A stretch of 12,089 bases of DNA from an uncultured Clostridia bacterium (GCA_964492845.1 CAZBMZ010000032.1:1-12089); one strand, 5' to 3'; counted from the stretch's first letter, positions 1 through 12,089 are shown. The notes: a model not told the origin generated them from the letters alone. Made by a program: numbers and translations.

Positions 1-58
1 AATCGTGTTCCTTTACCTTCTTGATTTTATTTACAGAAATCTATTGACAGCCCCTTTG
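1..58 (+). mobile_element. 3' end of a second IS256-family copy (last 7 transposase codons NRVPLPS* at 1-24, then right terminal repeat). Partial; continues left of the window.
   Basis: Bases 1-55 align at about 90% with 2574-2630, the C-terminus and downstream end of the complete IS256 copy. Similarity is lost after cccc/ctcc + ttt, which defines the IS end. Confidence 0.7.
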
Positions 59-398
59 TTCTTTGAGGATGAACTTGAGCTAATCTTTTCCCTGTCTTTG
101 CTTCAATTGCTGCCAAAAGTGCAGCCGAGCCATTTTTTTCATAGCTATAATGCTCTCTCATAACTTTCCCATTTTGCAAAGATAGTGGCTCAATCTTGTT
201 TCCTATCAAAAAACAAGGACGCTCATCAAAACATATTACTGGATAAAGTGGGTTGTATGGTTGTTGATATAACCATAATATTTGCTCCATTCTTGCTATA
301 AACTCTGCATTTATACACCCTATACACCAAGTCTTTTTCAAATGTGGTTTTAATTCGTTTTTTTTAGGATATTTCCCACTTGGGTATGCGATATTTTC
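27..398 (-). CDS. IS630-family transposase orfB (start of DDE domain). Reached from orfA by a -1 frameshift and C-terminally truncated.
   Basis: The frame stays open upstream to 398 and overlaps the last 16 codons of orfA in the -1 frame. Translation contains VICFDERPCFL, the first catalytic D region of IS630 transposases. The last ~9 residues are encoded by the IS256 end sequence. Confidence 0.75.
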   Translation of the reverse strand, partial: ENIAYPSGKYPKKNELKPHLKKTWCIGCINAEFIARMEQILWLYQQPYNPLYPVICFDERPCFLIGNKIEPLSLQNGKVMREHYSYEKNGSAALLAAIEAKTGKRLAQVHPQRTKGLSIDFCK

Positions 399-772
399 TC
401 ACAATAGCCCAATTCTACTACTTTGTTTGCCAATAGCCTTAAATCCCACCTTGCATGTCCTGTTGGTGCTTGACTACACGCTAATGCTGTTATTTTTGCT
501 CTTTGTATTCCATCTATTTCTATTGGTCGGCCTGGTCTGGGCAAGTCTTCTAAAAACTTTAGCCCTTCTCTTTTGTACTTTTCTCTCCATTCTGCTACTG
601 TTACCCCTCTTACTCCTAGTGTTTGGGCTATTTCTTCCAGTGTTTTTCCTTTTTCCATTTCCAGTAGTCCTATCGCTCTTTTGTATACCCTTACTGGCTG
701 TTTTCCTTTATTTACTATCTCTTCTAATTTATCGTAATCTTCTTGTGTTAATTTGATGTGTTGTTTTTTCAT
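350..772 (-). CDS. IS630-family transposase orfA (N-terminal HTH DNA-binding part, 140 aa), ATG start.
   Basis: N-terminal HTH region typical of IS630/Tc1 transposases (KGKTLEEIAQTLGV, PRPGRPIEID). Ends ...ILKKTN* inside an A8 run. Confidence 0.85.
   Translation of the reverse strand: MKKQHIKLTQEDYDKLEEIVNKGKQPVRVYKRAIGLLEMEKGKTLEEIAQTLGVRGVTVAEWREKYKREGLKFLEDLPRPGRPIEIDGIQRAKITALACSQAPTGHARWDLRLLANKVVELGYCEKISHTQVGNILKKTN
358..365 (-). promoter_or_regulatory. Putative -1 programmed ribosomal frameshift site (A AAA AAA heptamer within an A8 run) joining orfA and orfB.
   Basis: The + strand carries T8 at 358-365. In the orfA frame this reads CTA AAA AAA ACG. A slip back by 1 nt enters the open orfB frame. 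Confidence 0.55.
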
Positions 773-859
773 TCTTACATTTTTTCACATTTTTCTGAAA
801 AAATCTAAGTTTATTTAATTTACGCTGTACTAAGAGAAAATAGGTGTGAATTTGTCTTA

Positions 860-1126
860 GTGGCGAAAGATAGTTCACATCTTGAATTAGCACAGCTTAT
901 AGAGCAACATCAGAGTGATGGATTAATTGAGCAAGGAAGTTGGACATCTCAAGTTGGTAAAAAAACTAGACATTATGAATATAGGATTCTACATCATGTT
1001 GATTTAACCAAAAGTAAAAAGGTAAATCTAAACTACTTTGAAGTTTGGGAACGTGACTCTTCTAATTCTTTACTCTATCATAATAGTTGGGTTACTGACT
1101 TTAGAGTTACTAAAGAGAGGGTGTAA
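860..1126 (+). CDS. Hypothetical 88-aa ORF with GTG start. Likely a fragment of a gene disrupted by the IS insertions.
   Basis: Open frame with host-like T-ending codon usage. GTG start directly after a stop, with no convincing SD, and no family recognised. Confidence 0.3.
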   Translation: MAKDSSHLELAQLIEQHQSDGLIEQGSWTSQVGKKTRHYEYRILHHVDLTKSKKVNLNYFEVWERDSSNSLLYHNSWVTDFRVTKERV

Positions 1127-1212
1127 ACTAAATTGTGTAAATGGCAAAGAAAAGAAAATAATGGGGATAAAAGGGAAAAGCTTTTCATCAAAGTGCAATT
1201 ATAAGCTAGCTC

Positions 1213-1272
1213 ATTTTTTGTCAAGTTTTTCTAAAACGCTCGTAAATACTCGCTAAAAACTTGACAAAAAAT
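1213..1272. repeat. Perfect 18-bp inverted repeat with a 24-nt spacer: ATTTTTTGTCAAGTTTTT at 1213-1230 and AAAAACTTGACAAAAAAT at 1255-1272.
   Basis: Read directly from the sequence. The right arm coincides with the presumed left terminal repeat of the IS256 element. Confidence 0.8.
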
Positions 1273-2633
1273 ATCGCTTCGCTTTCATATTTGCACTTAA
1301 GGATGAAAAGCTAGAAGAGAAAACCTATTACTGCCCAAAACTTTGAGCAGTAAATTAAGTACAAAAGGAGAAGAAAAAATGCCAATTACACGAGAAATAC
1401 TAAACGAAATAATGAAAGATTATAGCAGTCCAGAAGACCTATTAGGAGAAAAAGGATTATTACATCAACTAACAAAAGCCTTGATAGAGAAAGCACTAGG
1501 AGCAGAGTTAACAGAACATTTAGGCTATGAAAAATACGAAGAAAAAGGAAGAAATAGTGGAAATAGTAGAAATGGAAGTAGTAAAAAGAAATTGATAGGA
1601 AAACAAGGAGAAATAGAAGTAGAAATACCCCGAGACAGAAATGCAGAATTTCAACCACAACTAATAAAGAAAAATCAAAAGCGATTTGATGGATTTGATG
1701 ATAAAGTAATTTCAATGTATTCTCGCGGGATGACAACACGTGAAATACAAGCACACTTAGAAGAAATATATGGAGTAGAAGTCAGTGCAGCCTTAATAAG
1801 TGAAGTAACAAACGCAGTAATAGAGGAAGTCCGAGCTTGGCAAACTAGACCCTTAGATGCAGTATATCCAATAGTTTACCTAGATGCTATACAAGTAAAA
1901 ATACGCACAGAAGGAAAAGTCAGTAATAAAGCGATATATTTAGCAATAGGGGTAAATTTGAAAGGATACAAAGAAGTATTAGGAATGTGGGCTAGTGAAA
2001 ATGAAGGGGCTAGATTTTGGTTGAGTGTAGTGACAGAGTTAAAAAATCGTGGAGTGAAAGATATATTTTTGGCTTGCATAGATGGCCTTAAAGGATTTCC
2101 AGAAGCTATAGAATCGGTGTTTCCAAAAACTCAGATACAACTTTGTGTAATTCACGTAATTCGTAATTCTTTGGCTTACGTATCCTATAAAGACCTTAAA
2201 AAGATTGTTGTAGATATGAAGCTTATTTATCAAGCAGTTACCGAAACTGACGCTGAAATTGCCCTAGAGCTTTTTGCTGATAAATGGCAATCCCGTTATC
2301 CTATGGCTGTCCAAGTCTGGAAAAGCAACTGGCGACATATTCGCACTTTTTTTGCTTTCCCTTTAGAAATTCGCAAAGCTATTTATACTACTAATGCTAT
2401 TGAGTCTGTTAATTTTTCTTTGCGTAAGATTTCTAAAAACCGAGCTTTGTTTCCCAATGATGAAAGTGTTTTTAAGCTTTTTTACTTAGCTATTAAAAAC
2501 ATTTCTAAGAAGTGGACTATGCCTATTCAAAACTGGATTGATACCATTAACCAGTTTTCTATTTTCTTTGAAGATCGTGTTCCCTTACCCTCTTGATTTT
2601 TATTTACACAATTTGTTTGACACCTCCTTTCTA
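1253..2633 (+). mobile_element. Complete IS256-family insertion sequence (~1.38 kb).
   Basis: Single 405-aa Mutator/IS256-type transposase. The right end is defined by comparison with the second copy at 1-58. The left end is approximate: the presumed left terminal repeat is an imperfect match to the reverse complement of the right end. Confidence 0.75.
1379..2596 (+). CDS. IS256-family (Mutator-like) DDE transposase, 405 aa.
   Basis: ATG at 1379 preceded by AAGGAG at 1365-1370. The track ORF starts at TTG 1343, which is less likely. Motifs: VYLDAIQVKIR, CIDGLKGF and TNAIESVN, matching the IS256 DDE signature. Confidence 0.9.
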   Translation: MPITREILNEIMKDYSSPEDLLGEKGLLHQLTKALIEKALGAELTEHLGYEKYEEKGRNSGNSRNGSSKKKLIGKQGEIEVEIPRDRNAEFQPQLIKKNQKRFDGFDDKVISMYSRGMTTREIQAHLEEIYGVEVSAALISEVTNAVIEEVRAWQTRPLDAVYPIVYLDAIQVKIRTEGKVSNKAIYLAIGVNLKGYKEVLGMWASENEGARFWLSVVTELKNRGVKDIFLACIDGLKGFPEAIESVFPKTQIQLCVIHVIRNSLAYVSYKDLKKIVVDMKLIYQAVTETDAEIALELFADKWQSRYPMAVQVWKSNWRHIRTFFAFPLEIRKAIYTTNAIESVNFSLRKISKNRALFPNDESVFKLFYLAIKNISKKWTMPIQNWIDTINQFSIFFEDRVPLPS

Positions 2634-3414
2634 TGTAAGAAGTATTAATCCAACCACTACCTTGAGAAAGAGCAATTAGCTTTTCTACAGCCTCAAGACT
2701 ACCTTTGACAAACCTATGTTGGACTCCAACTACAAGTTTACCACTATATTGTTTGACTACTTGAGCAATCATTAGACCAGGCCACACTTTGAACTTTAGT
2801 CTTGATTGCCCATCTTGTTTTTCTTTATCTCTAAATGCTTGTAAACTTGCTCTTATATAAGAAACTAATCCATCTACACATATTAATATTTCTCCTGCCT
2901 TTGCACAGGCTCTAATTTTTCTCATCAATTCACTTATCAAGGCCATATCCCTATTTTTACTTATTACTCCTCCTAACCATAGCCTCGTTTGAACCATTAT
3001 CCCCATTGCCATCCACACTATTATTCCTTGTGGTTTCACTCTTATTTCGTCACATTGTACTTGTCCTATTTCTCTTGGCTTTTCTATCACCTCCTTATGA
3101 ACTTTTTCGCAGTGATTTCCCGCCTTGTTTTGCCAATTTCTTACTGTTCTTTCATCTAGCCCCATTGCCATAACTATTGCTTGTATTGGACATCCATTTC
3201 CTACTAATGTTATTACTGTTTCCACTAAGTCTATTTCCTGCTTTACTTTATGTATTCTGTAGTAAGCCGTCCCTTTGCTTTGTGCAAACGTTTTTTTACA
3301 TTCCTTGCACTTGTACCTTTTCTCTTTCTAACTATGTATTTTTATGTTCCCTTTTCCTACTTCCCCTCTAGCAATGCATTCCATATTCGGGCAAAATACT
3401 TCTGTTGAGTTCAT
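2527..3414 (-). pseudogene. IS1-family transposase with an in-frame TAG stop at codon 29 (3328-3330). The last ~34 codons are read from IS256-derived sequence.
   Basis: ATG at 3414. Translation: MNSTEVFCPNMECIARGEVGKGNIKIHS*KEKRYKCKECKKTFAQSKG...VETVITLVGNG...QVQCDEIRVK...ILICVDGL...YIERR. This gives a Cys4 zinc ribbon followed by InsB-like DDE motifs. The same frame is open from 3414 to 2530 apart from the TAG. Confidence 0.8.
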
Positions 3415-3485
3415 ACTGATAGTCCTTTCTTTTTTATCTCAATTTTGATTATCAGTATTTTTCTCTACTTTTTCAATCCTTACCC
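2633..3485 (-). mobile_element. IS1-family element remnant, 3'-truncated by insertion of the complete IS256 copy.
   Basis: IS1-type zinc-finger plus DDE transposase. GGTAAGG at 3478-3484 (minus strand) resembles the IS1 terminal GGTAATG. ACTGATA motifs lie near the start codon as in IS1. Homology to InsB stops at the ...YIER codon, exactly at the IS256 boundary (~2631). Confidence 0.6.
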
Positions 3486-3588: not shown

Positions 3589-3640
3589 TTGACCTTTTTA
3601 CCATTGCCATTTACTTTTAAGAAAATCAAACGTTTGTTTT
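3589..3640 (+). promoter_or_regulatory. Putative sigma70-type promoter (TTGACC, 17-nt spacer, TACTTT) plus a perfect 10-bp palindrome CAAACGTTTG (3627-3636). The palindrome is a candidate TetR operator.
   Basis: Read from the sequence. The palindrome lies between the -10 hexamer and the TetR start codon. A related half-repeat AATCA(A/T)C(T/C)GTTTG recurs at 3641-3653. Confidence 0.35.
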
Positions 3641-3663
3641 AATCATCTGTTTGAATTATAAAA

Positions 3664-4338
3664 ATGGCAAATAATTTATTAGAAAATCAAGAAGAATTAG
3701 GGACTAAGCATCGGCTACTAGCAGTTGCAGAAAGGCTTTTTGCTGAACGAGGGCTAGCAGCAACAAGTATTCGAGACTTGGCACGGGAAGCAGAAGTCAA
3801 CATTGCTGCGGTAAATTATTATTTTGGGAGCAAAGAAAATCTTTACCTAGAAACATTGCGCTATGCTTTTCAACAAACAGGCGTAAGTTCTCCAGAATTT
3901 GAAAAAATAGTTAAAAAAGCCGAAGCCATTAATACAAAAGAAGCGGCTGAAATAGCTATTACTAAATATATTGAAGAATTTCTTCTCTTGATTCTTTCCT
4001 CTGATCAAGCACGCCGGCATGCTTGTTTAATGAGTAGAGAAATCAGCGACCCTACACCAGCTTTGGACGTTATTGTTCAAGAATTTATTTTGCCCAAAAA
4101 TAGAGCTTTATCTAGATTAATTGCTCAAGTTCAACCTGCTTTAGCAAATTCTGACAAGCTTCCGCTTTATACTATTAGTATTGTTTCTCAATGTCTACAT
4201 TATCATTTTGCCCTACCAATTATCTTAAAAGTACTTAATCAAAAAGAAATGACTCCAGACTTAATTAGTCGTATTGCTAAACATATTGCTGAGTTTTCCC
4301 TAACAGCATTAAAAGGTGTAAATCAAATAGAGGTCTAA
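3664..4338 (+). CDS. TetR/AcrR-family transcriptional regulator, 224 aa.
   Basis: N-terminal HTH LLAVAERLFAERGLAATSIRDLAREAEVNIAAVNYYFGSKENLY is the canonical TetR_N signature. Stop codon lies 2 nt before the next start. Confidence 0.9.
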   Translation: MANNLLENQEELGTKHRLLAVAERLFAERGLAATSIRDLAREAEVNIAAVNYYFGSKENLYLETLRYAFQQTGVSSPEFEKIVKKAEAINTKEAAEIAITKYIEEFLLLILSSDQARRHACLMSREISDPTPALDVIVQEFILPKNRALSRLIAQVQPALANSDKLPLYTISIVSQCLHYHFALPIILKVLNQKEMTPDLISRIAKHIAEFSLTALKGVNQIEV

Positions 4339-4340
4339 AT

Positions 4341-5462
4341 ATGTTACGTATTGCCTTACAAATGCTTATTGGTGATCGCGCTAAGTATATTACTTTGGTT
4401 AGTGGATTAGCTTTTGTTTCTTTATTATTTATTCAACAAGGGTCGGTTTTCTGTGGATTAATGCTTCGTACTGCTAAACCTATAGAAACCGTTGGGGCGC
4501 AAATTTGGGTAGCAGATCCTACACTACAATCTATAGATGAGTCTAAACCTTTATTAGACACAGATTTAACACGTGTGCGAAGTGTGCAAGGCGTAAAATG
4601 GGCAGTTCCTTTATTTTTAAGACAAACTCAAGTCAGATTAAAAACAGGTAAATTTCAAACTGTAAGACTTTTTGGTTTAGATAACGCTAGTTTAGCAGGT
4701 CGTCCTGGCAAAATGCTTGAAGGTGATACATCTGCGCTTAACTCCCCTGATTCTGTAATAATTGGAAAAGCGGAAGCAGAACGCTTAGGTAGCCCTAAAA
4801 TTGGTGATACTTTTGAAATTAATGACCGTCTTGCTCGTGTAGTTGGAATTGCGGACGTTCCAAGAGATTTTCTATCTAACCCTTATGTTTACACTACTTA
4901 TGACCGTGCATTACAATATTCACCTCGCCAGCGTAAACAACTTAATTTTATTTTAGTCCAAGCTCAAGACTCTTTAGACCCTAAAGAACTTGTGGAAACT
5001 ATTAAAAAATCTACAGGTCTGGCTGCTTATACTAAAGAAGATATGGAGTGGCTTACTATTGGCTACTATATGAAAAATACTGGCATTCCAATTAATATTG
5101 GGATTTCTTTAACCCTAGTTTTTCTTGTTGGAATGGCTATTGCAGGACAAACATTTTATGCTTTTGCCCTACAAAATGAGCGTTATTTTGGCGCGCTTAA
5201 AGCAATGGGAACTAGTAGTTTTACATTAGTTAAAATGATTTTACTTCAAAGTTTAACAGTAGGAATAATTGGCTATAGCATTGGTTCTGGAGCAGGCTGC
5301 CTTATTGGTTGGGTTAATCAAACTGGCCGACTAGCATTCTTTACCCCCTATCAACTACTGTTAATTAGTTTTATTATAACAATTCTAATCTGCATGGTAG
5401 CTAGTTTAATTAGCATTAAACGAGTCTTACAATTAGAACCTGCCGTAGTTTTTCGTAGCTAA
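4341..5462 (+). CDS. ABC exporter permease, FtsX/MacB-type (DevC-like), 373 aa.
   Basis: N-terminal TM segment, a large extracytoplasmic domain, and a C-terminal hydrophobic three-helix FtsX-like region. Translationally coupled to the flanking genes. Confidence 0.8.
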   Translation: MLRIALQMLIGDRAKYITLVSGLAFVSLLFIQQGSVFCGLMLRTAKPIETVGAQIWVADPTLQSIDESKPLLDTDLTRVRSVQGVKWAVPLFLRQTQVRLKTGKFQTVRLFGLDNASLAGRPGKMLEGDTSALNSPDSVIIGKAEAERLGSPKIGDTFEINDRLARVVGIADVPRDFLSNPYVYTTYDRALQYSPRQRKQLNFILVQAQDSLDPKELVETIKKSTGLAAYTKEDMEWLTIGYYMKNTGIPINIGISLTLVFLVGMAIAGQTFYAFALQNERYFGALKAMGTSSFTLVKMILLQSLTVGIIGYSIGSGAGCLIGWVNQTGRLAFFTPYQLLLISFIITILICMVASLISIKRVLQLEPAVVFRS

Positions 5463-5465
5463 AAT

Positions 5466-6203
5466 ATGAAAATACAAGATAATCAACTAACAAACTATGA
5501 TATAGCAGTGTCTTTAACTAAAGTATCTAAAACTTTTGGTGTTGGAGACACTCAAGTTAAAGCATTAAAAACAGTGGATTTACAAGTTTCTTGTGGTGAA
5601 TTACTTTTACTAGTGGGCCCGTCTGGATGTGGTAAAACTACTTTATTAAGTGTGATGGCTGGAATACTGGATAATGATGATGGTGTAGTTGATGTTTTTG
5701 GTGTAAGAGTAGATAAATTAAGTCAGGCTCAAAAAACTAATTTTCGTCGTCAATATGTAGGTTTTATTTTTCAACAATTTAATTTAATACCAACTTTAAC
5801 AGCAGCAGAAAATGTTGCTATTCCTCTACTTATCGCTAAAACTCCTTATTCAAAAGCTGTAAAAAAAGGGCGGGAGTTTTTATCTTTAGTAGGGCTAGGC
5901 GAAAGAACAGAATTTTTTCCTACACAACTTTCAGGCGGACAACAACAACGTGTTGCTATTGCTCGTGCTTTAGTATCTGAACCTAGGCTTATTGTCTGTG
6001 ATGAACCTACTGCTAGTTTAGATGGAGATACAGGAAAATTAGTTATGGAGATGTTCCGACGTACCGCACTTAGCAAAGATCGAGCAATTATTGTTGTAAC
6101 ACATGATAACCGTATTTTTTCTTATGGCGACCGAATAGCAGAAATGTTAGATGGGCAAATCGTCAATGTTCATAATAACCATAATGATTTAGTACATCAA
6201 TAA
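5466..6203 (+). CDS. ABC transporter ATP-binding protein (DevA/MacB/LolD-type), 245 aa.
   Basis: Walker [13 protein letters not shown] signature [15 protein letters not shown], Walker [14 protein letters not shown]-loop VVTHD. Confidence 0.95.
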
Positions 6204-6231
6204 GATAGAGGGATTAGAAGGAATAATAAGT

Positions 6232-7299
6232 ATGAGAAAATATGCCAGTATTTTATTAGCACTAATTGGAATAAGTTTTGCAGTTTATTGGGTAAAAGTC
6301 TCTGCTCGTCCAACACCTATTGCCCAACCGCTTAATGAACCTGCACAAAACACTTATGATCAAACTATTGCTGGTGCAGGAATTATTGAAGCAGCAGGAC
6401 GTAATATTCAAATTAACCCTCCTATTGCTGGTCAAGTTACACAAATCTTTGTTAAAGAAAATGATTTGGTGAAAACAGGTGATAAACTCTTTTTGATAGA
6501 TGATCGGGAGCAACGCTCTAAAATTGTTAGTGCTGATGCTAATATTGCCCGTGCTGAAGCAACTTTAGCTACAGCACACGCTGATATTGCTACTCAAGAA
6601 GCAGCTAAACAAAGTGCTGATGCTAATATCTCTCAATTAAAAGCATTGCTAGAAGACAATGAACAAGTTTTAGCTAGTAATGAAAAACTTTATCAGACTG
6701 GTGTAATTGCCTTTTTAACTTATAATACTAGCTTAAAGGCTCGTGATGCTGCAAAAGCTCGTGTAAGTCAAGCTGAAGCACAATTTCAACAAGCAGATGC
6801 GTTGCTTAATAGTGCAACAGCTAGAATAAAAGAAGCAGAAGCCAATTTAAGTGTCTTAAAAGCGCAACGAGCAGAACTTTTAGTTAATTTAGAGAGATTA
6901 ACAGTTACTGCACCGCAAACTGGCCGAGTTCTACAGCTTAATATCCGTGTTGGAGAAATGATTACAGCTAATCCAATTCAAGCATCAATGTTGATTGGAG
7001 AGACAGATTTTTTACAAGTTCGAGTAGATATAGATGAGGTTAATGCTGTTAAATTTTCTTCTGGAAGCCAAGCAATTGCACATCTAAAAGGAGATTCAAA
7101 TAAAAAAATTCCTCTAGAGTTTATTAGAATAGACCCTTATATTTTGCCAAAGAAAAGCTTAACTGGTGATAATACTGAGCGTGTAGATATTCGTGTCTTG
7201 CAAGTAATTTATAGATTTTCACCTCCAACTTTTCCTGTTTATGTTGGTCAACAAGTAGATGTGTTTGTTGATGCAGCACCCAAAGTTGCAACCAAATAA
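6232..7299 (+). CDS. HlyD-family membrane-fusion (periplasmic adaptor) protein, DevB/MacA-like, 355 aa.
   Basis: N-terminal TM anchor ILLALIGISFAVYWV, a biotin-lipoyl-like segment (PIAGQVTQIFVKENDLVKTGDKLFLID), and a long Ala/Gln-rich coiled coil. SD GAAGGAA lies upstream. Confidence 0.85.
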   Translation: MRKYASILLALIGISFAVYWVKVSARPTPIAQPLNEPAQNTYDQTIAGAGIIEAAGRNIQINPPIAGQVTQIFVKENDLVKTGDKLFLIDDREQRSKIVSADANIARAEATLATAHADIATQEAAKQSADANISQLKALLEDNEQVLASNEKLYQTGVIAFLTYNTSLKARDAAKARVSQAEAQFQQADALLNSATARIKEAEANLSVLKAQRAELLVNLERLTVTAPQTGRVLQLNIRVGEMITANPIQASMLIGETDFLQVRVDIDEVNAVKFSSGSQAIAHLKGDSNKKIPLEFIRIDPYILPKKSLTGDNTERVDIRVLQVIYRFSPPTFPVYVGQQVDVFVDAAPKVATK

Positions 7300-7329
7300 A
7301 AAAAGCCTAGTAATAACTAGGCTTTTTTA
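7300..7329. terminator. Bidirectional Rho-independent terminator between convergent genes.
   Basis: AAAAAGCCTAGT-aata-ACTAGGCTTTTT is a perfect 8-bp GC-containing stem flanked by an A-run and a T-run. It sits 1 nt after the adaptor stop and about 20 nt after the methyltransferase stop. Confidence 0.8.
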
Positions 7330-7348: not shown

Positions 7349-8407
7349 CTAAGCCTTTACAGCCATAATTACATGATCCATCCAAGAGCCATCAGGAATT
7401 TCTTTTACTTCTGCTTTAACAAAACCTGCATCATAGAGCCAAGACATAATTTGTGCTGCCGTGTAACTCTCTCCCATAGTCATATTTAAGCTAAATAGTG
7501 CTGGCAGCAAGGGTTGAGCGTCTTCATCATCTAAAAGCATTTCTTGAATTACAATTAAACCATTTGATGACATAGCTTTATAGGCTTTGCGTAACATTTT
7601 TTTACAAGTTGCTTCAGAAAAACCATGTAAAACACCAGAAATTAACATTACATCATATTCCTGGTCATAAGTATGAAAAGGAACTTGTGCTGGTTTAACG
7701 CTAACACGTTCTTTTAGACCGGAACGAGCAATAATTTCTTCAGCATAAGGAACTACTTCTGGATCATCTAAGACGGTAGCTTGTAAATTTGGATTACGTA
7801 AACAAAGAACTGCTGCATAAGTTCCGGGCCCGCCTCCAACATCGCATAAATGTTGACGACCGCTTAAGTCTAACATCTTAGCTAAAGCTTCTGCCTGACC
7901 ACTCATTGCAACATTATGAGAGCTAAGAATCCAGGCACGACTAGTTTCTTGGTCTGTTCGTTCTGTTGTTTGACTATCATTTCGCAGGCCAGTTTGAACC
8001 GTGCTAGCTAAAGTGCCAAATCTTTCCCATAGCGAGCCTAAATGCAGCAAAAAATGACCTTGGTAATGTGGTTTATATTCAACTAGATATTGTGATGCAG
8101 TAGGTGAATTACTAAAATATTTATCGCTTTTTTCTAACATCCCCATAGCAGCGCAAGCAGTTAAAAGCTTTTCTGTCCAACGGCGATTTAAGCCAAGTTT
8201 ACGTGCTAAATAATCACTTGTAGCAGGGTTATTTTCTAGCCTAGTAAAGACTCCAAGCTTAATTGCAGCTATGAGCGCGCCAGAAGCCCAAAACCCTGTA
8301 GCAATATCATAGATTTTTTTGATATCCGATTGTCTATCGTTATTGTTAGCTTCATTAGCTGATTTATTAGGTGTTTTAGTCTTGGTTTTTGATTGTGGTG
8401 AGTCCAT
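7349..8407 (-). CDS. Class I SAM-dependent O-methyltransferase (plant COMT-like family 2 with N-terminal dimerisation region), 352 aa. Carries a Lys/Thr/Asn-rich N-terminal extension.
   Basis: SAM motif LCDVGGGPGTYAAV. COMT-like downstream blocks (VLDDPEVV, ...GLIVIQEMLLDD). N-terminus MDSPQSKTKTKTPNKSANEANNNDRQSD is low-complexity. Confidence 0.85.
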   Translation of the reverse strand: MDSPQSKTKTKTPNKSANEANNNDRQSDIKKIYDIATGFWASGALIAAIKLGVFTRLENNPATSDYLARKLGLNRRWTEKLLTACAAMGMLEKSDKYFSNSPTASQYLVEYKPHYQGHFLLHLGSLWERFGTLASTVQTGLRNDSQTTERTDQETSRAWILSSHNVAMSGQAEALAKMLDLSGRQHLCDVGGGPGTYAAVLCLRNPNLQATVLDDPEVVPYAEEIIARSGLKERVSVKPAQVPFHTYDQEYDVMLISGVLHGFSEATCKKMLRKAYKAMSSNGLIVIQEMLLDDEDAQPLLPALFSLNMTMGESYTAAQIMSWLYDAGFVKAEVKEIPDGSWMDHVIMAVKA

Positions 8408-8542: not shown

Positions 8543-10780
8543 ATGGCTAAAAAAGTTTTCTTGCTAGTAATTTGCATTTTCTGCCTTTTAACAATTATCT
8601 TTCCTACAACTAAAGCCCAAATAGAAAATTTAGAGCCTGTTGGCAGACCGTTTATTCCTCTTGAAGCTAGATTAAAAACTTCTGCACCTGCAAATATGCT
8701 TATTAGTGGCACATTATATTTTCGCTTAAAAAATGAATCTGCACTTGATGATCTTTTAAGAGAACAGCAAGCTCCTACAAGTGAAAATTATCAAAAATGG
8801 CTTACTCCAAATCAATTTGGTGAAAAGTTTGGTGCTTCAAAAGATGTTTATCAAATGGCTATTGGTTGGCTAGAAAGCTCAAATATTAGAATTACTCAAA
8901 AATGGGCAAATCGTTTAAGACTAGATTTTCAAGCTCCTGTTTCGGAACTCCAAAAAGTTTTTCAAACACAAATACAGCTATTTGAACTAGATAACCAAAT
9001 TTACTATGCAAACTCACAAGCTAGCCATTTGCCTGCTAACTTAGCTTTAGAGATTATAGATGTTAAGCTAAATAGTTTTCTTTTTACAGAACCAAGCATA
9101 AAAAGACAACCTCAAGATATTTTGCCTACTGTAATAGATCGCGGACGTTTTGCTATTGGCCCACAGGATTTACACGTTGCTTATAATTTCAGACCGCTTT
9201 TTGCTAATGGCATTGAAGGCCAAGGACAAAAAATTGGTATTATTGCTAGAAGTGATTTTGATATGTCAGATGTTAATACTTATCGAGATTTATTTAAGTT
9301 ACCTGCTGTTAACATTGTAAAAATCCCTGCTGGTGGTGAAATAATTGACCGAGGTGGGATAGAAACCTTAGAAGTCTTGCTTGACACCCAATTATCAGGC
9401 GCGGCAGCACCAAAAGCAGATATTCAAGTAGTCATAGCCGATCGAGATAGTGATATTGATCAATCCTTAGCTTATTTTCTAAATGTTTTACCTGACACAA
9501 AAATATTAAGTATTAGTTTTGGAGCTTGTGAAAAATTTTTATTTCCTCAATTTGTTGCTTTATTTAACAATCTTTATAAACAAGCTGCGGCTCAAGGTCA
9601 GACAGTCTTTGTTTCTTCGGGTGATCGCGGTGCAAATGATTGTGGTGATGGACAAAGCTTGCAAGTTAATGGACTGGCCTCAAGTCCTTTTATAGTTGGT
9701 GTTGGAGGAACATCTTTAAGAGTTGAAACTAATAGTAATGGTGATGTAACAGCTTATCAAGATGAACAAGTTTGGCAAGGTAGCGGTGGTGGAATAAGTG
9801 TAATGTTTCCACGTCCAGACTTTCAAACTTTAGCTGGAATAACTCAAACAGGTCGGACGGTTCCTGATGTTTCATTGCTAGCCGACTTTAGTCGCCCAGG
9901 TTTTTTTGTTGTTGAAAGTGGGTTTACCCGTGTTATTGGTGGAACAAGTGCCTCTGCTCCGGTTTGGGCTGGGATTTTAGCCTTAACTAACCAGTTTTCT
10001 AAAACAGATGGTTTTGGTAATGCCAATCATCGCATCTACCAACTAGGTAAACAACAAGAAATTAGTGCTAGTCCTCGTTCATTATTTTTTAATGATATTA
10101 CGGTAGGAAATAATAGCGGTGGTGGACTCGATGGTTATCAAGCACGCCCAGGTTATGATCTAGCTACAGGTTGGGGAACACCTAATGTAGACCTGTTTGC
10201 TCGCAGTCTTTCTGGTGTTCCAGATAAAACTGATGGGTTATTTTTAACTTTTCCAAATGGAGGTGAAGTTTTACCACAAGATCAAACAATCAATGTTCGC
10301 TGGATTTTATCTCAAGACCTAGCTGCTAAGGCTACAAACCAAGATTTAATGCTTTCTACAGATGAAGGAAAGACATTTCAAACCATTGCTAACAATTTAG
10401 CTGCAAACCTACGAAGTTTTGATTTTACTCCAACAAAAATAACTGCAATAGCACGCTTTCGTATTGTTGTACGTACAAACTCTAGTAGCCAAATAGTTGA
10501 CACAAGTGATGCTAACATCAATATTGGCACAAACTTACGTATAGATTTTGCTCGCTACTCAATTTTAGATAACCGCTTAGAAATAATAGGCGAAGGGCTT
10601 TCCACAAAAGTAAAATTATTTGTTAATGGTGTTTCTATTAACCGTCCAGCAAAATTAATGGAGGATTTACTTTCATTTAAGGGCAAAGAGAAAAAGTTTA
10701 AGCTTAAAAAAGGTGAAAATACCGTAGCAATAGAAATTAATGGTATACGTTCAGCTATTTACAAATTTTTTGTTTTATAG
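8543..10780 (+). CDS. Secreted S53-family (sedolisin/kumamolisin-like) serine peptidase, 745 aa: signal peptide, pro-domain, catalytic domain, and a ~195-aa C-terminal extension of unknown function.
   Basis: Signal peptide MAKKVFLLVICIFCLLTIIFPTTKA. Catalytic Ser motif GGTSASAP, SSGDRG (oxyanion Asp), and the S53 Ca-binding motif GYDLATGWGTPN. SD GAGAGTAGG upstream. Confidence 0.85.
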   Translation: MAKKVFLLVICIFCLLTIIFPTTKAQIENLEPVGRPFIPLEARLKTSAPANMLISGTLYFRLKNESALDDLLREQQAPTSENYQKWLTPNQFGEKFGASKDVYQMAIGWLESSNIRITQKWANRLRLDFQAPVSELQKVFQTQIQLFELDNQIYYANSQASHLPANLALEIIDVKLNSFLFTEPSIKRQPQDILPTVIDRGRFAIGPQDLHVAYNFRPLFANGIEGQGQKIGIIARSDFDMSDVNTYRDLFKLPAVNIVKIPAGGEIIDRGGIETLEVLLDTQLSGAAAPKADIQVVIADRDSDIDQSLAYFLNVLPDTKILSISFGACEKFLFPQFVALFNNLYKQAAAQGQTVFVSSGDRGANDCGDGQSLQVNGLASSPFIVGVGGTSLRVETNSNGDVTAYQDEQVWQGSGGGISVMFPRPDFQTLAGITQTGRTVPDVSLLADFSRPGFFVVESGFTRVIGGTSASAPVWAGILALTNQFSKTDGFGNANHRIYQLGKQQEISASPRSLFFNDITVGNNSGGGLDGYQARPGYDLATGWGTPNVDLFARSLSGVPDKTDGLFLTFPNGGEVLPQDQTINVRWILSQDLAAKATNQDLMLSTDEGKTFQTIANNLAANLRSFDFTPTKITAIARFRIVVRTNSSSQIVDTSDANINIGTNLRIDFARYSILDNRLEIIGEGLSTKVKLFVNGVSINRPAKLMEDLLSFKGKEKKFKLKKGENTVAIEINGIRSAIYKFFVL

Positions 10781-11308: not shown

Positions 11309-12089
11309 TTATTCATAACGTAATGCTACTAGTGGATCAACTTTTGTAGCGCGGTAAGCAGGAATATAGCTAGCTAGCAAGGCAGTTAGAGCTAAAATTA
11401 ATGGAGCTATTATAAAAGTTATTGGATCAAAAGCACTTACACCAAATAAAAGACCTGCAAAAAGACGTGCTAAAAATAAACCGCCTATTGTCCCAAGAAC
11501 AATACCTATCATAACTAGCAACATAGCTTGGCTAAGAACTAGTTTTAGGATATCAAAGGGTTTCGCGCCTAAAGCCATACGAACGCCTATTTCTTGGGTA
11601 CGCTGATTTACAGAATAGGCTAGGATTCCATAAATTCCAACAGCAGCAAGAACTAAAGCTAACAGCCCAAACAAAACTAGTAAAATAGCACTCATACGAG
11701 CAGCCCAAAGACTTTGGCCTATTATTTCAGAAACTGTATTGATGTTTGTAAGAGGTAAATTACTATCAAGTGATTGTACTTCTGATCTAACTGTCCCTAA
11801 GATGCTTTTAGGATCTTCTTTACTTTGAACATATAAAGTTACTAAATTTGTATAACGTTGAAATATTGGGATATAGGCACAAGGATTTGGCTCTTCACCA
11901 AGAGAAACTTGTTTAGTATCCTTAACAATACCTATTACTTCAGTAAAATTGTCATCTCCAAAAAACCTAAAACGTTTTCCGATAGCATCTTGTCCGGGCC
12001 AAAAGCGTTTTACCATTGCTTCATTAATAATTGCAACACCTACAGCAGTTTCTCTATCAGTGTCATTAAAATCTCGCCCTTGCAAAATA
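11309..12089 (-). CDS. ABC transporter permease, MacB/FtsX family (C-terminal part). N-terminus lies beyond the window edge.
   Basis: MacB-type periplasmic domain residues (GQDAIGKRFRF, VIGIVKDT) followed by a hydrophobic FtsX-like four-helix region ending ...VDPLVALRYE. The frame is still open at 12089; the track's Met is a TTG. Confidence 0.85.
   Translation of the reverse strand, partial: ILQGRDFNDTDRETAVGVAIINEAMVKRFWPGQDAIGKRFRFFGDDNFTEVIGIVKDTKQVSLGEEPNPCAYIPIFQRYTNLVTLYVQSKEDPKSILGTVRSEVQSLDSNLPLTNINTVSEIIGQSLWAARMSAILLVLFGLLALVLAAVGIYGILAYSVNQRTQEIGVRMALGAKPFDILKLVLSQAMLLVMIGIVLGTIGGLFLARLFAGLLFGVSAFDPITFIIAPLILALTALLASYIPAYRATKVDPLVALRYE

Follow-up and report, generated by a model that had tools for sequence, protein, structure and literature searches.

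The window analysed here is a 12,089-nucleotide stretch of DNA from an uncultured Clostridia bacterium (CAZBMZ010000032.1 in assembly GCA_964492845.1). Between positions 3589 and 7329 it holds four genes, all co-directional by their open reading frames (ORFs), that encode a TetR-family regulator followed by the permease, ATPase and periplasmic adaptor of an ATP-binding cassette (ABC) transporter, together with candidate signals for the start, control and end of their transcription. The genes and the hairpin that closes the operon are:

3664-4338, + strand, TetR-family regulator of the CecR subfamily, 224 aa, TetR_N and CecR_C domains (Pfam)
4341-5462, + strand, type VII (MacB/FtsX-type) ABC permease, 373 aa, MacB_PCD and FtsX domains (Pfam)
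5466-6203, + strand, ABC ATPase subunit, 245 aa, ABC_tran domain (Pfam)
6232-7299, + strand, periplasmic adaptor (membrane fusion protein), 355 aa, N-terminal membrane anchor, Biotin_lipoyl_2, HlyD_D23 and HlyD_3 domains
7299-7328, no strand assigned, intrinsic terminator hairpin, 13-bp stem and 4-nt loop, flanked by an A-run and a T-run

The four gene identities and the tight packing of the operon, as given in an earlier note on this DNA, are borne out by the ORF coordinates and the domain matches, the gaps between tetR, permease, ATPase and adaptor being 2, 3 and 28 nt, respectively. In Pfam searches the regulator scores 58.9 bits for TetR_N and 90.3 bits for CecR_C (cut-off 24 for both), the permease 53.8 bits for FtsX (cut-off 25.5) and 52.9 bits for MacB_PCD (cut-off 27), and the ATPase 114.5 bits for ABC_tran. 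The motifs of the ATPase are all intact, comprising Walker A (GPSGCGKT), the Q-loop, the signature LSGGQ, Walker B (LIVCDE) and the H-loop, while the N-terminus of the adaptor is a hydrophobic anchor.

The hairpin, AAAAAAGCCTAGT-AATA-ACTAGGCTTTTTT, lies directly 3′ of the adaptor stop codon and is followed by TTTTTT. It thus has the stable GC-containing stem and the subsequent T-run by which Rho-independent terminators are recognized, and its folding energy of -16.4 kcal/mol (z = -5.4) was equalled by none of 200 shuffled sequences. An O-methyltransferase gene on the opposite strand stops at 7349, 21 nt past the terminator. Because an A-run and a T-run flank the hairpin and the methyltransferase gene converges on it, use of the terminator from both strands is plausible. 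The earlier note had described a strong bidirectional terminator; the strength stands, and bidirectional use is plausible only. An Rfam scan of the whole window at gathering thresholds matched no RNA family, and therefore no riboswitch or small RNA accounts for the 440-nt gap upstream of the operon.

Distribution and family of the pump

Relatives were surveyed using one genome per GTDB species. This yielded at least 592 stretches that code for a protein related to the permease, and the best 80 loci (46-78% identity) were taken; their arrangements were read by tblastn with the window proteins, and orthologues of the regulator were found with a hidden Markov model. Loci L081 and L084-L086 are close relatives, with 84-87% permease identity. 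The genes for permease, ATPase and adaptor follow one another on the same strand in 67 of the 80 loci, which span about eight phyla (Acidobacteriota, Verrucomicrobiota, Planctomycetota including anammox genera, Methylococcales, Nitrospirota, Desulfobacterota-type lineages and others). Three loci display the Chlamydiae-type order adaptor-OMF-permease(-ATPase), where OMF is an outer-membrane factor, five are cut by a contig end and five have another or an unresolved arrangement. The order is also kept in distant RefSeq-annotated plasmid relatives, from Asticcacaulis (40% identity, with a TolC gene) and on the megaplasmid of Nitratidesulfovibrio vulgaris (27.5%); the plasmid search returned only relatives of at most 40% identity, which are generically annotated. 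The earlier note had regarded permease-ATPase-adaptor as an unusual order compared with devBCA, and had itself said that this view would fall if the order proved to be the common one for the family in the host. As it is the norm of the subfamily, in 67/80 loci and down to 27-40% identity, the gene order is no oddity.

Two further genes come and go around this core. An orthologue of the TetR gene lies immediately 5′ of the permease gene on the same strand in 27/80 loci, and in one more after a gap of 196 nt. A gene of the OEP/TolC family (PF02321) follows the adaptor gene in 43 of the 80, mostly with a 4-bp start/stop overlap; among these loci and the window it is absent from all the Acidobacteriota examples, the window included. 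Comparison of the sequences suggests that (TetR)-permease-ATPase-adaptor-OMF is the full form, which looks ancestral.

Architectural variants were seen in L056, L072 and L079 (Tepidisphaerales) and in L038, L059 and L064 (Chlamydiae and, for L059, an unclassified bacterial metagenome-assembled genome, MAG). They include two tandem permease paralogues or the order adaptor-OMF-permease-ATPase; by analogy with LolCE, the tandem paralogues suggest a heterodimer. The order on a Paraburkholderia plasmid (L090) is permuted to ATPase-adaptor-OMF-permease.

The earlier note had called the exporter DevCAB/MacAB-like. Its family was tested with the curated NCBIfam models TIGR01185, TIGR02982 and TIGR02971 (DevBCA) at their curated cut-offs. 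The permease scores 53.5 bits with the DevC model (cut-off 290.35), the ATPase 230.5 bits with the DevA-family model (cut-off 295.8) and the adaptor 58 bits with the DevB-family model (cut-off 129). The adaptor is matched best by the curated models for MdtN, RND_mfp, EmrA and YbhG-type HlyD, MacA reaching only 34 bits, and its matches among solved structures (PDB search) are MacA and EmrA. The permease, when compared by sequence with solved structures, detects MacB alone (phmmer E = 1e-4). Its AlphaFold model (predicted local distance difference test score, pLDDT, 84) displays four transmembrane (TM) helices, TM1 and TM2 being separated by a large periplasmic domain, and a Foldseek search with this model returned LolE, MacB, HrtB, Spr0695 and YbbP, each with a probability of 1.0 and at ∼15% identity. 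Because the sequence reaches MacB only and the modelled fold matches LolE, MacB, HrtB, Spr0695 and YbbP, the pump is, as judged from sequence and model, a member of the type VII (MacB-like) ABC superfamily that has a separate nucleotide-binding domain (NBD) and transmembrane domain (TMD), as in DevCA, and that lies outside the DevBCA family. The MacB-type half of the earlier description is therefore retained, on the FtsX and MacB_PCD domains and the fold, while the Dev half is given up.

It could still be argued that the locus encodes a true DevBCA-family exporter of a glycolipid or envelope lipid, of the kind found in heterocystous cyanobacteria, with genes that have merely been rearranged. 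The DevC and DevA models are indeed the best-scoring curated models for permease and ATPase (LolD and MacB come next for the latter), the DevC alignment is full-length, and the separation of NBD and TMD is that of DevCA (PMC8277102). All three Dev scores, however, are far below the cut-offs, the adaptor is nearer to MdtN, EmrA and YbhG than to DevB, a different gene order is found consistently in 67 loci, and neither the window nor its close relatives have glycolipid synthesis genes adjacent to the operon. The relatives belong to Acidobacteriota, Methylococcales, Nitrospirota, Planctomycetota and other lineages and include no cyanobacteria; the nearest relatives of the permease (60-97% identity) are from metagenomes and MAGs labelled Acidobacteria, Blastocatellia or Acidobacteriaceae. 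Given scores under the cut-offs and nearest relatives in Acidobacteriota, the cyanobacterial DevBCA frame is not apt, and a rearranged DevBCA exporter is very improbable. The host is probably an Acidobacteria-like bacterium; the G+C content of the window is uniformly ∼35%.

With MacAB-TolC of Escherichia coli the system shares a four-TM permease with a periplasmic MacB_PCD domain, an operon-encoded adaptor and, in 43/80 relatives, a TolC-family partner gene. In MacB proper, however, the NBD is fused to the permease, whereas the ATPase of the window is a separate gene (5466-6203). MacB is only ∼15% identical to the window permease, the adaptor is nearer the MdtN/EmrA/YbhG type than MacA, and the E. 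coli order macA-macB contrasts with permease-ATPase-adaptor (followed by the OMF gene in relatives). Separation of NBD and permease is allowed within the type VII ABC superfamily, in which MacAB-TolC works by mechanotransmission from the periplasm (PMC5985334). The DevBCA-HgdD glycolipid exporter of Anabaena, like the window, has separate permease, ATPase and adaptor genes in one operon and no OMF gene in cis, this being located elsewhere in the Anabaena genome (PMC8277102). It differs in its gene order, devB-devC-devA (with separate DevC and DevA polypeptides; PMC8277102), in its regulation by NtcA (PMC6161253) where the window operon has a TetR, and in host phylum. A literature search found no described member of this pump subfamily and no ABC pump controlled by a PsrA box, the operator type discussed below.

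YknXYZ and Spr0693-0695 are adaptor-bearing MacB-type pumps of bacteria that lack an outer membrane. A pump that does without an outer-membrane channel, acting like these two or like LolCDE as an inner-membrane/periplasmic mechanotransducer, would fit an operon that has no OMF gene and in which the terminator directly follows the adaptor gene. It would also fit the absence of OMF genes from every Acidobacteriota locus, and LolE, HrtB and Spr0695 among the best Foldseek matches. Set against this, an OEP gene is translationally coupled to the adaptor gene in 43/80 relatives, and the adaptor has a long predicted helical segment and MdtN/EmrA-type similarity, typical of adaptors that dock onto an OMF. 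Moreover, the OMF genes of tripartite pumps are often located elsewhere, as are those for TolC and HgdD (PMC8277102). A channel-free pump is consequently considered unlikely, and a tripartite-type pump is preferred.

Candidate promoter and operator boxes

The region ahead of the TetR gene contains four candidate elements:

3589-3594, + strand, candidate -35 hexamer TTGACC, read from the sequence and identical in L081
3612-3617, + strand, candidate -10 hexamer TACTTT, weak, separated from the -35 by a 17-nt spacer
3625-3642, no strand assigned, putative operator box 1, ATCAAAC-GTTT-GTTTTAA, PsrA-type, matrix score 18.2 bits
3638-3655, no strand assigned, putative operator box 2, TTTAATC-ATCT-GTTTGAA, matrix score 15.0 bits

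L081, the closest TetR-bearing relative, has TTGACC, a 17-nt spacer and TATTTT, and many distant orthologous promoters carry TTGACA at the same relative position. The proposed promoter is not among the hits of a promoter consensus scan, which returned promoter-like sites no more often than chance; it is therefore the conservation in L081 that carries the proposal. The -35, conserved in L081, is upheld; the -10, which the earlier note had called plausible and placed upstream of a palindrome, is weak and unlisted by the scan. L001 shows the same placement as the window, with two boxes 4 nt downstream of a TATAAT. The arrangement differs in many loci from proteobacteria, Nitrospirota and Planctomycetota, where the 17-nt spacer that separates TTGACA from the -10 is occupied by the first box and a further one or two boxes come after it.

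The perfect 10-bp palindrome reported in the earlier note, CAAACGTTTG at 3627-3636, is confirmed as a single copy in the window compared with 0.03 expected, and five of 200 shuffled sequences have one. It lies inside box 1. When the orthologous sites are aligned, an 18-bp palindrome emerges with the consensus TTCAAAC-N4-GTTTGAA, and the window has a single exact AAACN4GTTT, that of box 1. The N4 spacer of this box chances to read GTTT as well, which is what produces the perfect 10-mer; L012 and L081 have the same spacer. The nearby half-repeat AATCATCTGTTTG (3641-3653), which had been suggested as a second site, holds up in that it falls within box 2, the second-best matrix match of the window, which overlaps box 1 by 5 bp at an offset of 13 bp.

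The operator matrix was built from 35 sites of other loci, the window and L081 being excluded. Boxes 1 and 2 are the two best scores that it gives in the window, where the next best site anywhere reaches 9.4 bits. In 200 random 12-kb sequences, 0.08 sites of at least 15 bits are expected per 12 kb, and a site of at least 18.2 bits occurred in none. The exact pattern AAACNNNNGTTT has 49 copies in 919 kb of loci, 33 of which sit immediately ahead of the TetR gene, 600-900 nt before a permease start; box 1 is at -713 from the permease start, and most orthologous boxes are at -650 to -790. Two or more boxes are present in 19 loci, and in loci other than the window tandem boxes are spaced by 13 bp (seven cases), 26 bp (two) or 39 bp (one). 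A box of at least 12 bits was found in 25 of 28 TetR-bearing loci but in only 4 of 52 that are TetR-less (Fisher p = 1.7e-13), with 55 boxes per 80 kb near the genes compared with 9 per 839 kb elsewhere. There is some circularity in these counts, since the same loci supplied the training sites of the matrix, but none in the exact-pattern count or in the scan of the window. In L081 the AATCAAACGTTTGTTTTAATCAT core of box 1 is kept base for base, and no further conserved palindrome was seen in the orthologous TetR promoters. These sequence comparisons strongly support the view that the palindrome region is a deeply conserved, putative TetR-type operator. The proposal that the palindrome is the operator is therefore upheld for the region, which is conserved across phyla and tracks the TetR gene, and corrected for the register, as the conserved core is AAAC-N4-GTTT within an 18-bp site.

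Boxes elsewhere vary in number and place. L081 (7250-7300) has three through duplication of the 13-bp unit AATCATTTGTTTT, so that the box 2 unit is present twice and operator copy number varies by whole 13-bp units. A MAG labelled Actinomycetota (L002) contains the whole TetR-permease-ATPase-adaptor operon, 71% identical, with a 25.7-bit box ∼4 kb upstream of the permease gene, away from the TetR promoter; this copy could reflect mis-binning or horizontal transfer. At the Asticcacaulis locus the TetR is divergent and unrelated, and a PsrA-type box was not found there. In the window a third site at the CAAACGTTT copy (3285-3293) was considered and rejected, since it scores 7.1 bits only and its second half-site is missing.

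The regulator and its relation to CecR and PsrA

The regulator has the TetR_N plus CecR_C architecture of E. coli CecR (YbiH), to which it is 31% identical over 181 residues, and its closest solved structures are YbiH/CecR (1t33 and 9i1x). Against the CecR equivalog model NF008587 it scores 80.4 bits, the cut-off being 365, and by sequence it is a relative within the CecR family rather than an orthologue of E. coli CecR. In E. coli, cecR is the first gene of the ybhGFSR operon, which also encodes an HlyD-type adaptor and an ABC exporter; YbhFSR, however, is an ABC-2 type transporter with the adaptor first, while the window pump is of the FtsX/MacB type. The E. coli cecR palindrome, TCTTAATCAA-TCAT-TTGATTAAGA, is a perfect 10-4-10 repeat and contrasts with the AAAC-N4-GTTT of the window. 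It lies immediately before cecR in E. coli K-12 (NC_000913; L087 6645-6700, minus strand), and its half-site TTAATC is the same as that on the left of box 2 in the window, but the spacing is unlike that of a PsrA-type box. The idea that the window box is simply the CecR box was rejected, as the E. coli cecR promoter palindrome differs.

A second kinship is confined to the DNA-binding head. The PsrA model NF053516 gives 57.5 bits (cut-off 300) over residues 12-82 only, and the match to 2fbq, which is PsrA (PMC13599538), covers residues 14-62 only. Searched alone, the head is closest to HlyIIR, followed by PsrA (2fbq), and its recognition region, VNIAAVNYYFGSK, is nearly identical to VNLAAVNYHFGSK of PsrA 2fbq. 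Conservation across 27 orthologues is highest in the head, where the mean top-residue frequency is 0.69 compared with 0.46 in the rest of the protein.

The operators agree with this kinship. The PsrA box footprinted on Pseudomonas putida rpoS is TTCAAACN4GTTTGAA, the general form being C/GAAAC-N2-4-GTTTG/C, and in the autorepressed psrA promoter the box lies between -18 and +20 (PMC13104628). For Smlt2053 of Stenotrophomonas, two repeats of this kind are present and two shifted complexes are seen (PMC10304680). The operator consensus of the window pump subfamily, TTCAAAC-N4-GTTTGAA, is identical to that of PsrA (Pseudomonas) and Smlt2053, and the window boxes at 3625-3642 and 3638-3655 fit the PsrA-type operator form at the regulator's own promoter, just as the boxes of PsrA and Smlt2053, frequently a pair of repeats, overlie the beginning of the gene for the regulator itself. 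The likeness has limits: PsrA resembles the window TetR only in the N-terminal 50-70 residues, the ligand domain of the latter being of the CecR type; PsrA targets β-oxidation, rpoS or type III secretion genes whereas the window target is an efflux operon; and PsrA has a fatty-acid ligand, while for the window TetR the ligand class is suggested only by the box match.

So exact a consensus invites the suggestion that the boxes are bound by a separate PsrA-like global fatty-acid regulator, and that the adjacent TetR reads another sequence. Loci L004 and L012, which have a box without an adjacent TetR gene, could be cited in its favour. The box, however, tracks the adjacent TetR gene across unrelated phyla (the 25/28 versus 4/52 comparison, p = 1.7e-13, given above), the recognition region of the window TetR matches that of PsrA and lies in the most conserved part of the protein, and these promoters offer no alternative conserved palindrome that the TetR could read. 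A separate regulator is accordingly improbable, and the operon's own TetR is preferred as the protein that binds the boxes.

A model for the operon, its surroundings and its significance

With a probability of about 0.78, the locus is an operon that controls its own expression and encodes a tripartite-type ABC efflux pump of MacB, or type VII, class. Gene content, motifs, fold, terminator and the conservation of gene order support this directly, as do the conservation and position of the boxes and their co-occurrence with TetR. From these data we infer transcription start, binding, repression, ligand, outer-membrane partner and substrate export as follows. Transcription is predicted to start at about 3624 from the promoter TTGACC-17-TACTTT; from these promoter positions boxes 1 and 2 would extend over about +1 to +32, and the ATG at 3664 lies beyond them. 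The CecR-type TetR that the operon itself encodes would bind the boxes as dimers and block transcription of tetR-permease-ATPase-adaptor; since the boxes lie over the promoter start, occupancy should prevent initiation or promoter escape, and overlap of the two sites at a 13-bp offset would place the dimers on different helix faces. A lipophilic ligand in the CecR-type pocket may release the repressor from DNA, allowing a single polycistronic mRNA to be made that would end at the hairpin at 7299-7328. The motor would consist of a permease dimer and an ATPase dimer, and the anchored adaptor is predicted to bridge it to a TolC-like outer-membrane channel encoded elsewhere in the genome; in most relatives outside Acidobacteriota such a gene appears directly 3′ of the adaptor gene. 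Separate encoding has precedents in TolC of E. coli and HgdD of Anabaena, each of which serves many pumps (PMC8277102). Substrates would be expelled from the periplasm or the outer leaflet by mechanotransmission, as in MacAB-TolC (PMC5985334).

Several observations weigh against this model, in addition to the partial circularity of the matrix-based counts. The candidate -10, TACTTT, matches the consensus at only 3/6 positions. No OMF gene was found within the 12-kb window, and the tripartite assembly is therefore drawn here from relatives. Loci L084 (6900-7040), L085 (7900-8020) and L086, at 84-86% permease identity, have neither the TetR gene nor a box, and regulation is therefore dispensable; in relatives of this kind an unrelated gene lies upstream, and only 15-20 nt separate it from the permease start. 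On the sequences compared, the regulatory module is therefore gained or lost on short evolutionary timescales. Conversely, two Acidobacteriota loci, L004 (5920-5940; Chloracidobacterium) and L012 (1997-2017; Blastocatellia) carry a 27-32-bit box directly before the permease gene and have no TetR gene within 6 kb; the regulator is therefore encoded elsewhere or the operator is a relic.

The remainder of the window contains:

7349-8407, - strand, O-methyltransferase, convergent with the operon
8543-10780, + strand, sedolisin-like peptidase, 745 aa, assigned by domain matches
1111-1142 and 2602-2633, imperfect 32-nt terminal inverted repeats of an IS256-family element, transposase at 1343-2596
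27-341, 350-772 and 2634-3225, - strand, IS630/DDE_3-like fragments
11309-12085, - strand, running off the window, second FtsX-type permease, ADOP-family duplicated, assigned by a curated model match

The earlier note had pointed to the methyltransferase and the peptidase as possible substrate context, and the pump might accordingly be a dedicated exporter or immunity system for their product. The genes are adjacent, the terminator is shared with the convergent methyltransferase gene, and the same arrangement recurs in one metagenome contig with the same, identical proteins. That contig is, however, the only place where the two genes accompany the operon; in relatives at 84-87% permease identity the flanks are wholly different (Wzy-type, glycosidase, kinase and two-component genes), and clustering of the flanking ORFs in the 80 loci revealed no conserved neighbour besides TetR and OMF. 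In addition, the methyltransferase is encoded on the opposite strand, and no box precedes either its gene or that of the peptidase. As neither gene is conserved as a neighbour, they provide no clue to the substrate, and the chance that the pump serves their product is very slim.

The peptidase has a pro-kumamolisin activation domain (87 bits), its catalytic region scores 18 bits with Peptidase_S8, below the cut-off, and ∼250 C-terminal residues are without a match. Upstream of the operon, positions 1-3450 form a nest of insertion sequences (ISs). The metagenome contig with the identical operon breaks off 217 nt before the TetR gene begins, probably because assembly stopped at the IS repeats. 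In that contig the ADOP permease is 821 aa long (L088 7863-10328); within the window it has no adjacent ATPase gene. ADOP-family duplicated permeases are typical of Acidobacteria.

On a bolder reading, the cassette (TetR)-permease-ATPase-adaptor(-TolC) may move horizontally between phyla as a module and take its operator along, with a regulator that joins a PsrA-type head to a CecR-type pocket. Should the pocket sense fatty acids or other envelope lipids, the pump would not be a drug pump but would export lipids or lipophilic toxins on induction, and would represent a distinct, uncharacterised type VII branch, sister to DevBCA. This proposal is speculative and, taken as a whole, rather doubtful. 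Lipid sensing by the pocket, if true, would parallel PsrA and Smlt2053.

Repressor-controlled MacB-type pumps are common. As a tripartite pump of this type, the system adds a new member to a class already known, and because such pumps are common the finding, with the gene-order oddity dropped, has little consequence for basic biology. The subfamily is nonetheless widespread and uncharacterised, and the data delimit it: it occurs in at least ∼590 species-level genomes from many diderm phyla, with a fixed gene order and optional TetR and TolC genes. It is mildly notable that a PsrA-type box travels with a CecR-type repressor and a pump across many phyla. As inducers, the match to the PsrA box would at a first guess suggest fatty acids and lipophilic compounds, and the operator shared across phyla, TTCAAAC-N4-GTTTGAA with a tandem spacing of 13 bp, makes the regulator-operator pair readily testable and possibly reusable as a genetic switch.

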